Positions 18,044 through 39,721 of a stretch of 41,341 bases of DNA are shown here, in pieces. Each line of letters begins with the position of its first letter. Within the stretch, counting starts at the first letter, position 1. Below the pieces are notes generated by a model. The model did no database searches, was not told where the DNA came from, and saw nothing but the letters and a program-made list of their open reading frames with translations. The translations under genes and the position numbers were made by a program. Source of the DNA: a virus (Duplodnaviria; Heunggongvirae; Uroviricota; Caudoviricetes); the IMG/VR virus record IMGVR_UViG_2718217863_000002. One strand, given 5' to 3'.

Positions 18044-18436
18044 TTATTTAACTTTTCCCGTATAGCCCGCATTCACCTGAGCATCAGCGGAGTCTATTTT
18101 CCCATGGGAGTAAAAAATAGTATGTGCTTCAGCACCTGTATATCCACCATAGGAGTTTTTAGCATTAATGGTTATCGGAATAAGCCATCCATATCGCATA
18201 GCCCCACCTGATTCAGCTAAAATGCCATCCTTAAACCATGCTTTCTCTGGTGTACCAAAAGTATAATGAGCAGAATATGGGTCTTTTAACATCCTTCCCC
18301 ACCAATCCTTTATCTGCTGCTGATAGTTATCCGGTAACACCCCATAATCAGCCGAGTGCAACTGAACTTGGCTAGGTGGATTTGCGGCGCACGCAGTTAA
18401 CAATAATGCAAATAACATAATCGCTATTTTCTTCAT
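18044..18436 (-). CDS. lipoprotein (insert between tail chaperone and tape measure genes)
   Basis: Signal peptide MKKIAIMLFALLLTAC with lipobox LLTAC; 130 aa; lower GC than neighbours; own terminator. Confidence 0.6.
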   Translation of the reverse strand: MKKIAIMLFALLLTACAANPPSQVQLHSADYGVLPDNYQQQIKDWWGRMLKDPYSAHYTFGTPEKAWFKDGILAESGGAMRYGWLIPITINAKNSYGGYTGAEAHTIFYSHGKIDSADAQVNAGYTGKVK

Positions 18437-23656: not shown

Positions 23657-24934
23657 TTAAGCCCCGGCATTGCGGGGCTCTTTGTTTGTTCCGAGATCGG
23701 TAATGGGCACGTTCTGCGACTGCCGTGTCGCCACATCACCTCCGGGCAGCGGCGGCAGGTTATCGAGCCTTCGAACCTCGTTAACGGTCCGAATCCCGGT
23801 ATTGACCATGATTTGCATAAATGATGCCCGGCTTGTTGAATCACCGCGCAACAGCCCGTCGAGGTTATGCTCGGCGTGAATGATGCCCTGTTCTGACTCT
23901 TTGACCAGCCAGCGCTCAATGCTGTACTCCCACCGATCAAGGTAGGGTTTGAGGGTATACTGGAGAAAGCCTAGGTTTTGCTGTTCAATCCCCGATCCCC
24001 AGGAGGTGGTTTTGTCCACATCGCCGACCAGATGTGGAGGCACGCCGTAAAATCGCGCCAGTTCGGCGACCTGAAATTTACGCGCAGACAGAATTTCTGA
24101 ATCCTGAGGCGAAACGCCGATAGGTTGCGTGGTGAAGCCGCTCTCAAGGATCCAAAGCCGCTTTTTGACCGGGCCACCAGCAATCTCCTTAAAGTTTTCC
24201 TCCAACTGCCCGCGCTGCTCTTTCGTCAGCACCTTGCCGTCAGTCATCAGGATCTGCGGAGACTTCGCACCATTGGCGAAAAATTCACGCTGGTTATCTT
24301 CCATCGCTATGGCCACACCAGCAGACTTCGCACTGAACGCCAACGGCGAAAGACCAGTCAGCCCATTGAAGCCAAACCCTTTGAGATGAAAAATTTCTTT
24401 CTGTGAAAAGTCGGCGTATTCAGTGTCCCGTCGGTAGCGATAGATAATATTTTTACCGTTATCGCTGAGCCGAACTTCCATATTGGCGCTCATCAGTGGA
24501 ACCATGCTAATCACGTCACCAACACTGTTTCGCTCAACATGTGCATAGGCGTTGCCGTAGGCACATAGTTGCATAGTCATTGCTTCGCGAAACTCAAGAG
24601 CGGTCATGAAGTTGTTGGGACGGAATCTCAGCAGCTTCGCCAGGGGGTGACTGTTGTCCACTTTCGTGCGCTGATCATTTTTGGTCTGATAAACATCGAG
24701 TGGTAAAGATGCTGTTACGGTGGAGATTAACCTGATGCAGGCCCATACCGTACTGATTTGCATATTACGCTCATCAGTCACAACAGAATCACCAACCACA
24801 CCGTGCGCTGACGTACCCGCCATTTGCGAGCCCTTATCGGGTGTCACCAGGCGGCCGCCGGTCAGGATAGAGGCCATGCGCGCCCAGAATGGCGATCGCG
24901 TCCGCAGGTCAATGCTGTAATCGGTATCTGCCAT
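23657..24934 (-). CDS. portal protein
   Basis: 425 aa, between large terminase and protease. Confidence 0.85.
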   Translation of the reverse strand: MADTDYSIDLRTRSPFWARMASILTGGRLVTPDKGSQMAGTSAHGVVGDSVVTDERNMQISTVWACIRLISTVTASLPLDVYQTKNDQRTKVDNSHPLAKLLRFRPNNFMTALEFREAMTMQLCAYGNAYAHVERNSVGDVISMVPLMSANMEVRLSDNGKNIIYRYRRDTEYADFSQKEIFHLKGFGFNGLTGLSPLAFSAKSAGVAIAMEDNQREFFANGAKSPQILMTDGKVLTKEQRGQLEENFKEIAGGPVKKRLWILESGFTTQPIGVSPQDSEILSARKFQVAELARFYGVPPHLVGDVDKTTSWGSGIEQQNLGFLQYTLKPYLDRWEYSIERWLVKESEQGIIHAEHNLDGLLRGDSTSRASFMQIMVNTGIRTVNEVRRLDNLPPLPGGDVATRQSQNVPITDLGTNKEPRNAGA

Positions 24935-36335: not shown

Positions 36336-36504
36336 AAGACCCCTCTATTTCCCTGAATTTTCGTCTGAACTGCTCGAGGGGGCTGAAACACTCGTGCTTA
36401 TACCCTTCGCGCAGGTATATAACGCGCTGTGTCTGGGGCTCCCAGCGTATGACCCTGACCGGGACACCGTAGTGATCTCTGAACCATCGGTTAAGTTCTC
36501 GCAT
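36292..36504 (-). CDS. possible small protein upstream of the replication gene
   Basis: ORF track, 70 aa; overlaps the replication gene start and a competing ORF. Confidence 0.25.
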   Translation of the reverse strand: MRELNRWFRDHYGVPVRVIRWEPQTQRVIYLREGYKHECFSPLEQFRRKFREIEGSYEPVNAIKADSHQS

Positions 36505-36741
36505 ACTTTCTCCGCCTGGCCGTTAAAGTCCCCTACCACCCACTGAGCAAACTGGTAGCAGACAGGTTCGAACCCGCCTGGTACTCTTACCCCATACACG
36601 AACTGCACCGGTCCTGCTCCACCAGGAACTGGCCGCGCTACAAGTTGCGACCTGCGGTACTGTGTTGATAAACTGTTCATGCGTTAGTAATCTCCACTGA
36701 TAACGACACGCCACGACGCCAGGAGCTGCAACTCGCTGGCG

Positions 36742-37203
36742 TCACTTCTTTTTGCGTGAAAATAACGTGATAATTGCGGCAATCTCTTCTTCCCGAGCTG
36801 CCAGATGGCGGCGGTGATGCACCATGATTTCTTCGGCCTCGTGCCTTTCAATAACGCCATCTTCAAGTGCCTGTTCGATAATCTGATCAACCTGTCCCCT
36901 GGCGGCAGAGGTACGCATTGCCCGGCTAAACAAGTCCACGCGATCCAGCTCTTCCAGGTGCGGAACATCCACCAGCAAAGCACCACGACGGCGGGCGAAG
37001 TAGTCTGCCAGTAGTGACGTGTTGGAAATGTCTTCCATCGCTTCCAGCTCCGATACTTCAAAAAATCGACAGCCGTTTTTCTCGTAGAGGTTGTTGTTGA
37101 ACTGCGTCACGGTCATTCCCAGTGCGCCAGCCATTGCTTCGCGCCCACCTGGATATGCTTTGCACATCGCTTTGACGGCTTCTTTGAGGTTTGGCTCTAC
37201 CAT
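36742..37203 (-). CDS. CII-like regulatory protein
   Basis: ATG at 37203 (MVEPNLKEAVKAMCKAYPGGREAMAGALGMTVTQFNN..., HTH-like); directly downstream of cro. Confidence 0.5.
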   Translation of the reverse strand: MVEPNLKEAVKAMCKAYPGGREAMAGALGMTVTQFNNNLYEKNGCRFFEVSELEAMEDISNTSLLADYFARRRGALLVDVPHLEELDRVDLFSRAMRTSAARGQVDQIIEQALEDGVIERHEAEEIMVHHRRHLAAREEEIAAIITLFSRKKK

Positions 37204-37237
37204 ATTGATTTTCCTTTTGTAGTTATCGAATAACCGC

Positions 37238-37480
37238 TTAAGCAGTACGATTATTTGCACTTGGTACGTCATCTGTTTGATAGCGACTTGGGTACAAAAT
37301 GTGTAATTCGCTTATTTCTCCTCTAAAGAACTTGGCTAATCTCTCCGCCAGTTCGACAGATGGGACTTGCTCGCATCTTTCAATGCGGCTCAACGTTGCA
37401 GGATCTACCTGTACCCCGGTTGCAACGTGCAATAAGGTCATGCCATGCGATTTTCGCAATTTTCTTAATGGTGATTGCAT
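37238..37480 (-). CDS. cro: Cro-like HTH repressor
   Basis: 80 aa; HTH GMTLLHVATGVQVDPATLSRIERCEQVP; divergent from the CI gene. Confidence 0.65.
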   Translation of the reverse strand: MQSPLRKLRKSHGMTLLHVATGVQVDPATLSRIERCEQVPSVELAERLAKFFRGEISELHILYPSRYQTDDVPSANNRTA

Positions 37481-37495
37481 AACGCCTCCTATTTT

Positions 37496-37556
37496 TGCGT
37501 ATTACGCATGCTATTCCACGCTAGCGAATTGCGCAAGTTGCTTTGCACGAAACGCA
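37496..37556. promoter_or_regulatory. right operator region: three TGCG-N5-CGCA-type sites between cro and cI
   Basis: TGCGTATTACGCA (37496-37508), AGCGAATTGCGCA (37523-37535), TGCACGAAACGCA (37544-37556). Confidence 0.5.
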
Positions 37557-37577
37557 AAAACAACATGTAATGAGTGA

Positions 37578-38273
37578 ATGAAAATAGGATCTCGCATACG
37601 ACAACTTCGCTTAGCGAAGAACATTAAAATCGCAGAGCTTGCAGAAGCTGTGGGCGTTGATGCTGCCAATATTTCCAGGCTTGAAACTGGTAAACAAAAG
37701 CAGTTTTCAGAACAGACACTTAACCGACTTGCTCAAGCTTTAAGCGTAAGTGTACCTGACCTATTTACCTCTGACGAAAATGATACTACTGTACATATAA
37801 ACAGTAAAAAATATGCATCTCCCGTAAAGGATGTGGATGTATACAGAGTCGAGGTACTTGATGTGAGCGCAAGCGCCGGGGCAGGACATATACACGGTAG
37901 TGACGTCATAGATGTCATTCATGCTATCGAGTTCAGCAATGATCAGGCATTGGCAATGTTTGGTGGCAGGACTCCATCTGGAGTAAAGGTCATCAACGTT
38001 CGCGGTGATAGCATGGCCTCAACGATTGAGCCTGGCGACCTAATCTTTGTGGACGTAACTATCAATGAGTTCGATGGGGATGGGATTTACGTCTTTGGTT
38101 TTGATGGAAAAGTTTATGTTAAACGCCTGCAGATGATACCAGACCAACTGCTAGTCATCTCTGATAACCCTCGTTATAGAGAATGGAATATAACTAAAGA
38201 GAATGAACACAGATTCTATATCTATGGAAAGGTTTTAATAAGCCAGTCTCAGTCCTTTAAACGGCATGGATAG
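37578..38273 (+). CDS. cI: CI-type repressor (N-terminal HTH, C-terminal S24 LexA-like autopeptidase)
   Basis: HTH IKIAELAEAVGVDAANISRLETGK; C-terminal GDSM with Ser and downstream Lys (VKRL); 231 aa. Confidence 0.85.
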   Translation: MKIGSRIRQLRLAKNIKIAELAEAVGVDAANISRLETGKQKQFSEQTLNRLAQALSVSVPDLFTSDENDTTVHINSKKYASPVKDVDVYRVEVLDVSASAGAGHIHGSDVIDVIHAIEFSNDQALAMFGGRTPSGVKVINVRGDSMASTIEPGDLIFVDVTINEFDGDGIYVFGFDGKVYVKRLQMIPDQLLVISDNPRYREWNITKENEHRFYIYGKVLISQSQSFKRHG

Positions 38274-38291
38274 CATTCATCATCATAAACT

Positions 38292-38316
38292 AGGCCTCAT
38301 TCGAGGCCTTTTTTTT
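38292..38316 (+). terminator. rho-independent terminator after cI
   Basis: AGGCCTC-attc-GAGGCCT then TTTTTTT. Confidence 0.6.
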
Positions 38317-38323
38317 CGCCATA

Positions 38324-38366
38324 AAATTGCGAGTAACGCACATAGCTATTGCGTTACTCGCAATTT
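38324..38366. promoter_or_regulatory. candidate left operator: perfect 17-bp inverted repeat carrying two operator motifs
   Basis: AAATTGCGAGTAACGCA-(9)-TGCGTTACTCGCAATTT; each arm contains TGCG-N5-CGCA. Confidence 0.45.
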
Positions 38367-38636
38367 ATGATTATCTTCTACTCGTCGGCACATGACGAAA
38401 CTTACGGACAAGGATGAACAGAACACAACATGGAAGCGCATTCCCCTTCTTTCCGGTGGGGATCGGTTTGTAACTGAAGGAGTGCGCTTCCAGTTGTGTG
38501 GAGAACTAACGTACCGCCATTGCAGTGGCGGTCCCCCATCAGCAAGAAATTTTAACCAGCTATTCACCCACTTTCATGGGTTGGGTTGCTGCACCCTAAA
38601 TTTACGCGTTGCAGCGCGTCAGATGGAGAACAAAAG

Positions 38637-38936
38637 ATGGCTAAGACAGCAAATCAATTGATTAAACAGGCGTACGAAATAGCCAAAACTATGCCACCAG
38701 AACAGGCAGCAATCATCAAGGAACTGGCTACCGTCCTCGATGTTTCGAATGTAGCTCTGCGCCAGACACGCACCGAACGTGACGCCCTTCTCGCAGAGGT
38801 CAAATCTTGGGCGAAGGAGTGTGATCGTATTACTGAGCGATATACCAAGAAGCGCATAAATCTGCATGTCCTCGAAGCAATGCGCGATTTGAAAGCAATT
38901 TGCCCCACCAGCTTCCGTAACGTGGAGGCTCTCTGA
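38637..38936 (+). CDS. hypothetical early-left protein
   Basis: ATG at 38637 with GGAG RBS (MAKTANQLIKQ...); track ORF starts at an upstream TTG. Confidence 0.45.
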   Translation: MAKTANQLIKQAYEIAKTMPPEQAAIIKELATVLDVSNVALRQTRTERDALLAEVKSWAKECDRITERYTKKRINLHVLEAMRDLKAICPTSFRNVEAL

Positions 38937-39721
38937 TGGCTAAAGACTCAAAGCTGGTATATGGCGCGAGTGGCAAAACGAACGTTTTGACGTTCGAACC
39001 TGAAAACCTGCACCTGGTTACCGACAAAACGCACCCGCTTTACGATGAGCGTATCCACCTGCCTATCAGCGAGGCAATGGTGCTGAACATCATGGACCAG
39101 GGCGTTCTTGAGCCGATTATCGTCTGGAAAGACCCGGAGACAGGGCTGTCTTGTGTGGTTGATGGTCGCCAGCGTGTGCGACATACACTGGAAGCCAACA
39201 AGCGTCTGTCGAAAGAGGGCAAAGAACCGTTACTGGTTCCGGCAGTCGCTAAACGTGGCTCTGCCGTTCGCATGGCGCAGGCGATGGTAAGTGCTAACGA
39301 AATCCGCCAGGCTGATACGCCGCTGGGCCGAGCAAAGAAAATGGCTGATGCGCTGGACCGCGGGCACGACGAGGACGATTTATCGCTGATGTTTGGCGTG
39401 AGTGTTCAGACAGTACGTGCAACGCTGTCGCTGCTGGATGCCACCCAGGCTGTCCGCGATGCAGTGGAATCTGGAACTGTCACCGTTACCCAGGCGCGTC
39501 AGCTTGGTGCGCTCCCACCTGAAGAGCAGCGTGCCAAAGTGTCAGCAATCGAGCTGGCGACAGCTGGTACAACCGGCCATGAAAAAGCCCGGCGTCAGCG
39601 TAAGATTCTCGGTGAGGAAAAGCCGCGTCTGAAAACCCGCAAAGAAATTACTAAAGCCCTGGAATCTGCCGAGGGTGAGTATGCAAGCGCACTCCGTTGG
39701 GTGCTTGGGGAGTCCGTATGA
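38936..39721 (+). CDS. ParB-like nuclease domain protein
   Basis: 261 aa; IIVWKDPETGLSCVVDGRQRVRH resembles the ParB N-terminal box. Confidence 0.6.
   Translation: MAKDSKLVYGASGKTNVLTFEPENLHLVTDKTHPLYDERIHLPISEAMVLNIMDQGVLEPIIVWKDPETGLSCVVDGRQRVRHTLEANKRLSKEGKEPLLVPAVAKRGSAVRMAQAMVSANEIRQADTPLGRAKKMADALDRGHDEDDLSLMFGVSVQTVRATLSLLDATQAVRDAVESGTVTVTQARQLGALPPEEQRAKVSAIELATAGTTGHEKARRQRKILGEEKPRLKTRKEITKALESAEGEYASALRWVLGESV

Follow-up and report, generated by a model that had tools for sequence, protein, structure and literature searches.

Candidate CI/Cro operators with a TTGCG-N5-CGCAA dyad in the immunity region of a lambda-like enterobacterial prophage

In phage lambda, transcription from PR and PRM starts 82 bp apart, and the PRM transcript is leaderless. 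The operators of phage 434 are 14 bp long (ACAA-N6-TTGT), and its Cro and CI contact one set of operators through similar recognition helices, while P22 operators are 18 bp long. Extra operators within the lytic transcription unit are known from HK022 (OFR), TP901-1 (OD, in the cro-like gene mor), and phi105 (a third operator). For the repressor type considered here, specificity was stated as unknown in a 2025 paper (PMC12315714), and a 2025 study of phage LLS pointed to phage mEp460_4F5 for the closest CI and Cro relatives. Here, we analyzed a 41,341-nt stretch of DNA from a virus of the Caudoviricetes (IMG/VR record IMGVR_UViG_2718217863_000002; hereafter “the window”, meaning this whole stretch), in which an initial annotation had described a tripartite operator with the motif TGCG-N5-CGCA between a cro and a cI gene. 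Judging from the sites themselves, from their statistics and conservation, and from the way they accompany one type of repressor recognition helix (helix 3), the motif, in its extended form TTGCG-N5-CGCAA, is very likely the CI/Cro operator of a lambda-like prophage switch of Klebsiella and E. coli.

Candidate operator sites and their conservation with the repressor

The window carries a lambda-like immunity module, in which a cro-like gene (37238–37480, − strand; 80 aa) and a cI repressor gene (37578–38273, + strand; 231 aa) are divergent around a 97-bp intergenic region (37481–37577). Three sites had been placed in this region, at 37496, 37523, and 37544, spaced 27 and 21 bp start to start. 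These coordinates are right, but the motif is exact only at the first of them, O1 (37496–37508, TGCGTATTACGCA; extended TTGCGTATTACGCAT), and carries one mismatch each at O2 (37523–37535, AGCGAATTGCGCA) and O3 (37544–37556, TGCACGAAACGCA; extended TTGCACGAAACGCAA). The list was also incomplete, as it did not report a strong and exact site inside cro, S0 (37446–37458, TGCGATTTTCGCA; extended ATGCGATTTTCGCAA, 37445–37459). Two further exact copies, OLa (38328–38340, TGCGAGTAACGCA) and OLb (38350–38362, TGCGTTACTCGCA), make up the palindrome downstream of cI in which the motif had been said to recur. All these sites are dyads and are given without a strand.

Across the whole window, we found 5 exact matches to the motif against 1.25 expected, a number reached or exceeded in 1 of 100 window shuffles, and four of the five are clustered within 917 bp around cI. 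Matches with one mismatch were not enriched window-wide (22 vs. 24.6 expected), so that O2 and O3 cannot be judged by the 8-base pattern and require independent evidence. For this, we turned to relatives. Queries of CI or of its N-terminal domain alone retrieved, by tblastn, phages whose repressors are 45–75% identical in the DNA-binding domain, namely ST64B, F1055, SfII, mEp460, Stx2a_1447, Eeyore, and phiNP as well as Yersinia, Morganella, and Cronobacter phages. A scan of species-representative genomes yielded 66 further loci, and five intermediate relatives (75–91% identical) were obtained by exact protein look-up. A symmetrised, 19-nt weight matrix was derived from 60 distinct sites, all from relatives and none from the window; its consensus is TTGCG-N5-CGCAA, a 15-bp dyad in which the central base is obligatorily A/T. 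The five top-scoring positions in the window were OLb (21.1, the window’s best), OLa (18.9), S0 (17.9), O1 (17.7), and O3 (17.4). The next match scored 13.7 and none outside the immunity region reached 15, while the maxima of shuffled sequences were usually 7–14, with 1 of 20 shuffles reaching 20.8. Outside the immunity region, an exact core occurs just once, at 18383 (TGCGGCGCACGCA); its matrix score is 4.3, and it was taken as a chance occurrence. The 13.7 match, at 24759, was likewise set aside as it lies inside a structural gene and within the range of shuffle maxima.

The positions of these sites are kept in relatives, whose intergenic regions align almost gap-free. The subfamily nearest to the window, group A, has VDAANISRLE or IDGANVSRVE as helix 3 and carries sites at −132, −82, −34, ~+750, and ~+772 relative to the cI ATG, the last two past the cI terminator. 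ST64B, SfII, Eeyore, phiNP, Stx2a_1447, mEp460, and loci with CI 45–91% identical have their sites at these offsets, with the half-sites kept and the 5-nt spacers unrelated. O1 is found at −82/−83 in all relatives of group A and of a second subfamily (group B; SDVGNxSRLERG), and the positions of O1 and O3 are kept in every relative examined; S0 is present at −132/−133 in 19 of the 23 group A relatives and absent from group B. Per-column conservation across 34 loci peaks exactly at the half-sites of O1 and O3 and at the putative promoter hexamers described below, with peaks at TAnnAT (37513..37508), TTGCGCAAG (37529–37537), and TnnAAT (37566–37571). Among Klebsiella phages 98–99% identical to the window, O1, O3, and S0 are invariant.

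Two side observations concern these relatives. A 1.4-kb contig labelled Actinomadura rugatobispora (L047, NZ_JBHSON010000232.1) carries an enterobacterial-type cro-cI with the same operators and a CI 81% identical; it probably represents contamination of an actinomycete assembly. In group B (L006, L007, L008, and others), operators also occur 14–15 bp apart centre to centre, both beside O3 (TGCGCAAGGCGCT) and at the leftward promoter PL, e.g., ATGCGCTTGACGCAT followed directly by ATGCGCTATACGCAT, which is tighter than usual for two helix-turn-helix (HTH) dimers.

The site inside cro could be examined through codon usage, since it lies over cro codons 8–12 (L-R-K-S-H), i.e., ~+44 to +56 of the putative PR transcript, with its centre 50 bp from that of O1. 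In a comparison of 12 diverged cro genes, codon 8 is TTG (Leu, 10/12) or GTG (Val, 2/12), codon 11 is TCG (Ser, 10/12) or GCG (Ala, 2/12), and codon 12 is always CAN, even where His is replaced by Gln. The Arg of codon 9 is always encoded by CGN, with all four third bases seen. Neighboring Leu, Arg, and Ser codons use other synonyms, e.g., mostly AGR for the Arg at codon 6 and TCA for the Ser at codon 3. Third positions within the S0 spacer take every possible value, and the synonymous positions of the half-sites are fixed, which points to selection on the DNA itself.

The motif had been proposed as the recognition sequence of the repressor, and we found it to be conserved together with the repressor type. 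When the repressor has V, I, or S before D-[VAG]-[AG]-N-x-S-R-x-E in helix 3, at least one exact core is found ≤150 bp upstream in 61 of 66 loci, where chance would give ~0.005 per locus. These 66 loci include Providencia, Aeromonas, Achromobacter, Paraburkholderia, Ralstonia, and Gallionella, so that the motif reaches Burkholderiales. With W or G before the helix-3 motif, an exact core was found in none of five loci (L009, which is Fels-1, L028, L030, L023, and L043). The repressors of these five loci have the same N-x-S-R-L-E helix with W/G in place of S/V/I just before it, and the Fels-1 type has a conserved ATGTATAAAATACAT dyad instead, plus a leader with a Shine-Dalgarno sequence; the W/G vs. 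V/I/S difference may thus be a natural specificity switch. On the side of Cro, helix 3 (VDPATLSRIE) resembles that of CI (VDAANISRLE): Cro carries nearly the helix 3 of its partner CI, and the two co-vary between subfamilies. This likeness is visible only once both proteins are placed on the HTH_3 profile register.

Putative promoters and a proposed switch

Three candidate promoters, each with a 17-nt spacer, can be placed around these sites. PR would lie on the − strand (−35 TTGCGC at 37536..37531, −10 TAGCAT at 37513..37508, start ~37500–37502; score 8.6), with its −35 hexamer part of the invariant TTGCGCAAG element. PRM would lie on the + strand (−35 TTGCAC at 37543–37548, −10 TGTAAT at 37566–37571, start 37578; score 6.3), as would PL (−35 TTGCGT at 38349–38354, −10 TATCTT at 38372–38377, start ~38384; score 8.4). 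Dyads thus overlap both putative divergent promoters: O1 covers ~−7 to +6 of PR, and O3 covers −34..−22 of PRM, its left half being the −35 hexamer. A second operator set sits on the leftward early promoter, with two exact sites past the cI terminator, OLa at −56..−44 of the putative PL and OLb at −34..−22, where its left half is again the −35 hexamer. The TATCTT of PL is found at the same distance in most relatives, and the promoter would drive a + strand operon comprising a phrog_15091 gene, a ParB-like gene, xis, and int. The PRM −10 pattern T-n-n-A-A-T is kept 6–7 nt ahead of the ATG in groups A and B (6 nt here). Because the putative PRM start coincides with the A of the cI ATG and no Shine-Dalgarno sequence precedes it, a leaderless cI mRNA is implied. 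Position 37511 is C here (PR −10 TAGCAT) and T in all four close Klebsiella relatives, ST64B, and SfII (TAACAT), with TAATAT in distant relatives; of the whole family, this copy thus has the putative PR −10 farthest from consensus.

With these elements, the switch would work as follows. An SOS-cleavable CI, and probably Cro, would recognize the 15-bp dyad with its central A/T. In a lysogen, CI dimers would occupy the four sites with a perfect core (O1, S0, OLa, and OLb), shutting PR and PL; O3, with its one core mismatch, should be bound once CI is more abundant and would then keep cI transcription in check (negative autoregulation). At O2, binding would depend on cooperativity with O3, at a distance of 21 bp, and might not occur at all. 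Self-cleavage of CI, stimulated by RecA, would free PR and PL, after which Cro, with its similar helix 3, would take the same sites. We infer the binders, the promoter positions, the occupancy order, the cooperativity, and any looping between the right and left operators OR and OL (~0.8 kb) from the sequence.

A broader reading joins three elements and, taken as a whole, appears to us rather unlikely: a rewired switch built on S0, O1, O3, and the OL pair with no PRM-activating site, an S0 held in place by selection on synonymous codons, and a general rule linking helix 3 to TGCG-N5-CGCA. Its three full-strength sites, in cro (S0), at PR (O1), and on the PRM −35 (O3), are spaced by 50 and 48 bp. 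Since no site would activate PRM, cI would be maintained by pure negative autoregulation, perhaps with OR-OL looping over ~0.8 kb. Under the rule, D-x-x-N-x-S-R-x-E would pair with TGCG-N5-CGCA from Enterobacterales to Burkholderiales, and V/I/S vs. W/G would act as the specificity switch.

Alternative readings of the sites

Several points weigh against the sites being the operators of such a switch. With O3 lying over the PRM −35, a site from which PRM could be activated as in lambda is not apparent. CI and Cro are assigned as binders by co-occurrence, BLASTP of Cro against the CI N-terminal domain returned no significant overall similarity, and the relatives share descent, so that site counts are non-independent events. 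As for the promoters, which were to be mapped by −10/−35 scoring, the conserved hexamers are indeed the best in the region with a sigma-70 matrix, but their scores (6.3–8.6) fall within the chance range, with random 160-bp pieces of the window giving a median of 6.5 and a 90th percentile of 9.6. A consensus promoter scan reported none of PR, PRM, and PL, and the PRM −10 TGTAAT is a tentative assignment given that its position 2 is not the usual A. With sigma-70 scores at chance level, the promoter assignments draw on positional conservation. The scan did return promoter-like matches at 37808 and 38398 (both − strand), which we rejected as incompatible with the gene layout. One could also suspect that the TTGCG elements are only −35 hexamers (TTGCxx) or AT-rich context, or the sites of another factor, such as a CII/YmfL-like or a host protein: three half-sites do coincide with putative −35 hexamers, and the binders are assigned indirectly. 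Yet the partner half CGCA(A) lies exactly 5 nt off at every site, S0 is in coding DNA, O1 at a putative transcription start, and OLa upstream of a −35, and the sites co-occur with the helix-3 type across varied neighbors and hosts and are gone when one residue class changes, all of which makes this explanation very improbable. Just as improbable is that the downstream palindrome (38324–38366) would work as an RNA or DNA hairpin, terminating or stabilising the transcript after cI, and not as protein-binding sites. OLa and OLb do form a perfect 17-nt inverted repeat with a 9-nt loop, the fold of 38280–38375, which includes the cI terminator hairpin, has a minimum free energy of −39.3 kcal/mol (z −9.4), and a scan marks 38348–38364 as terminator-like. 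However, a canonical terminator is already present at 38292–38316, the stem is followed by TTTATGATTATC and not by a T run, and, lying upstream of the putative PL start, the element would be transcribed only by read-through. Furthermore, the long stem is broken in 98–99% identical relatives in which both dyad cores persist, and the spacers are not complementary in ST64B, SfII, Eeyore, L013, L014, L018, and L019. The conserved candidate PL, with its −35 in the left half of OLb and a lambda-like order of elements around it, also speaks against a hairpin role. A rho-independent terminator at 38324–38366 was thus rejected, the stem being stable but followed by no T run and not conserved. The initial view of the palindrome as a recurrence of the motif therefore holds for its two exact copies, but falls short in that these form an operator pair on the putative PL whose symmetry is itself not conserved: in relatives, the OL cores and their 22–24 bp spacing are kept, and the spacers are usually not complementary.

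The remaining points against concern the middle site. Of the tripartite, OR1-3-like operator first proposed, O1 and O3 are strong and conserved, but O2 (matrix score 9.3) is weak and its left half is not conserved: positions 37523–37526 have a conservation of 0–3 on a 0–9 scale across the 34 loci, the O2 register scores −8.7 to −12.3 in ST64B, SfII, Stx2a_1447, mEp460, and L019, and 37523 and 37526 vary even among the 98–99% identical Klebsiella phages (AGCG, GGCG, AGCA). O2 also lacks the outer T that is present in 99% of the 120 training half-sites, and it is overlapped by a rival register, O2' (37530–37542, TGCGCAAGTTGCT), which is the better site in group B. Apart from this last point, the same observations favor an intergenic operator that is effectively bipartite (O1 and O3), with S0 as the third real site and O2 as a chance near-match arising from the invariant TTGCGCAAG element; the right half of O2 (CGCAA) is invariant, but the same stretch is the putative PR −35, for which it would have been kept. 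We regard this as a serious contender, although we lean slightly away from it, because the O2 register scores ≥9 in 9 of 17 group A loci (left halves AGCG, GGCG, TACG, TGTG, TGTA, and TGTC) and 11.1 in the relatives from E. coli (91%) and Enterobacter (87%), and because a score of at least 9.3 is met at 5e-5 of the positions in the rest of the window and as the best score in just 0.28% of intergenic shuffles. In addition, O2 stands at −34..−22 of the putative PR, i.e., the geometry of O3 on PRM and OLb on PL, and 21 bp from O3, matching the 22 bp between OLa and OLb. The middle operator might instead be O2', whose centre (37536) lies 42 bp from the putative PRM start, where O2 is centred at −49, so that CI could activate PRM much as lambda CI does from OR2. 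The homologous position is good in group B (TGCGCAAGGCGCT, one mismatch, nearly invariant) and exact in Citrobacter amalonaticus L013 (TGCGCAAGTCGCA), and close packing is known in the family, the PL sites of group B being adjacent at 15 bp. In this phage, though, the right half of O2' is TGCT (two of four core bases), its score of 6.8 is below that of O2, and it is doubtful whether O2' and O3, whose centres are 14 bp apart, could be occupied together; ST64B and SfII have TGAT as the right half (scores −1.8 to −2.2). O2' is thus an improbable candidate and, as PRM has no good site with its centre at −42, activation in the manner of lambda is not apparent. Returning to the CI/Cro operator reading, a third, weak intergenic operator at 37523 is plausible in this phage, and the tripartite layout is, from comparison of the relatives, not a property of the family.

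The region around OLa and PL shows additional variation. Positions 38317–38345 are a substitution hot spot among the 98–99% identical Klebsiella phages, with ~10–11 variable columns per 30 bp vs. 1–2% elsewhere, and the changes are limited to the OLa spacer and flanks, leaving the cores of both OLa and OLb intact. The nearest Klebsiella relatives have a different OLa spacer, which leaves the perfect 17-nt inverted repeat peculiar to this window. A perfect OLa/OLb repeat has also arisen independently, with other spacers, in phiNP and in a Lonsdalea prophage, which suggests that such repeats may reflect occasional copying of one site onto the other. Downstream, ~250 nt separate the putative PL start from the first recognisable gene (38384–38636), with a long hairpin at 38423–38500 and a GC-rich hairpin at 38513–38532. 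This segment folds with a z-score of −2.8 (0 of 200 shuffles fold as well) and matches nothing in Rfam; a nut/put-like antitermination element and a leader RNA are both conceivable. In the open reading frame starting at 38586, the phrog_15091 match sets in at residue 18, i.e., at ~38637.

Gene context and comparison with known switches

The layout is that of a lambdoid switch, with a repressor combining HTH and S24 domains encoded divergently from a small Cro-type HTH protein. CI has a 434-like XRE HTH domain and an S24 (LexA/UmuD-type) autocleavage domain (Pfam HTH_3/HTH_31 and Peptidase_S24), Cro matches HTH_3, and both belong to PHROG transcriptional repressor families. NCBIfam provided no specific family for CI or Cro, and a look-up of homologous proteins returned generic names only, e.g., “XRE family transcriptional regulator”. 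The CI N-terminal domain aligns with the 434 repressor (phmmer E 1e-4; 1e-5 for its engineered variant dh434). CI also matches UmuD/UmuD', and the Ala-Gly site and Ser/Lys dyad of RecA-stimulated self-cleavage are present at the sequence level, with A100, G103, S145 (in GDSM), and K182 invariant across nine aligned repressors. The cI gene is followed by an intrinsic terminator (38292–38316, + strand), a GC-rich 7-bp stem and then a T run, whose position is kept in relatives. Beyond it come the palindrome and, on the + strand, the phrog_15091 gene, the ParB-like gene, the excisionase gene (xis), and the integrase gene (int). On the other side, downstream of cro, come genes for a CII-like protein, replication, and a Dam methylase. 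The CII-like gene (36742–37272) is of the CP76/YmfL family (phage 186 CII/e14 YmfL type) and not of the lambda CII family. Its family matches begin at residue 26–29 and relatives annotate a 153–156 aa product, so that its true start is probably an internal ATG near 37203, and its apparent overlap with cro is probably not real. An Rfam search over 36500–39200 gave only a sub-threshold match to Atu_C8 (E 0.65), which was rejected.

The immunity module is 98–99% identical to that of the Klebsiella pneumoniae phages P7641, the Kp48xx series, 1 LV-2017, and ST147-VIM1phi7.2. A 100% identical copy of the cro-cI module (37238–38273) is present in the chromosome of E. coli 5CRE51, and 18 complete E. 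coli genomes have the module at ≥99% identity. Of 5426 complete E. coli genomes, 1060 contain modules ~70% identical (≥80% query coverage). The closest phage records to the cro-cI module are all from Klebsiella, despite the 100% copy in E. coli 5CRE51.

In the literature on the operators of ST64B/SfII/mEp460, Klebsiella prophages, e14 ymfK, and HK022 (OFR), we found no description of a TTGCG-N5-CGCAA operator, and the PaaR2/YdaS operators of CP-933P were set aside as having a different consensus. The predicted operator specificity is thus newly described, while the switch itself is of the standard lambda type. Enterobacterial prophages of this immunity type, which is common but unstudied (ST64B, SfII, mEp460, some Stx2a phages), thereby gain a concrete, predicted operator sequence. 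With the operator known, it would become possible to predict cross-immunity, to engineer virulent or inducible derivatives, and to search for host genes under the control of a prophage repressor. If the helix-3 rule is true, sequence data would suffice to assign immunity groups in those complete E. coli genomes, ~20% of the total, that have a related module.

The closest described phages, of the mEp460/LLS/ST64B/SfII type, share the CI/Cro family and the operator layout. Helix VDAANISRLETGKQKQ is identical in ST64B, SfII, and mEp460, although their CI is ~70% identical overall (N-terminal domain 68–75%) and these phages lack O2. With 434, the locus shares the fold family of the CI N-terminal domain and a Cro and CI with similar recognition helices. 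An even-length operator of the 434 type was not found here, the dyad TTGCG-N5-CGCAA being of odd length, and Q28, Q29, and Q33 of 434 align with A29, A30, and R34, so that base contacts must differ. Like the extra operators of HK022, TP901-1, and phi105, S0 is a full-strength site downstream of the putative lytic promoter, in the first lytic gene. In comparison with these, it is fixed 50 bp from O1 and overprinted on cro codons 8–12, with candidate roles as a roadblock, in cooperativity, or in looping.

Compared to lambda, the recognition sequence is TTGCG-N5-CGCAA rather than the 17-bp TATCACCGCCAGTGGTA type, and two strong intergenic sites 48 bp apart with a weak one between them stand in place of three sites at 23–24 bp. 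O3 lies over the PRM −35 and positive autoregulation is not evident, an additional strong site lies inside cro, OL has two sites where lambda has three, and the CII-like protein is of the CP76/YmfL family. Otherwise, the locus follows lambda: cI and cro are divergent, with putative back-to-back PR and PRM promoters whose starts lie ~77 bp apart, odd-length dyad operators cover these promoters, and CI carries an S24 autocleavage domain. As at lambda PRM, cI starts 6 nt past the putative −10 with no Shine-Dalgarno sequence, and a second operator cluster is found on the putative PL, which has the strand of cI, in the order cI, terminator, OL/PL, early left operon, xis, and int. The general analogy to lambda OR/OL, as first drawn for this region, holds.

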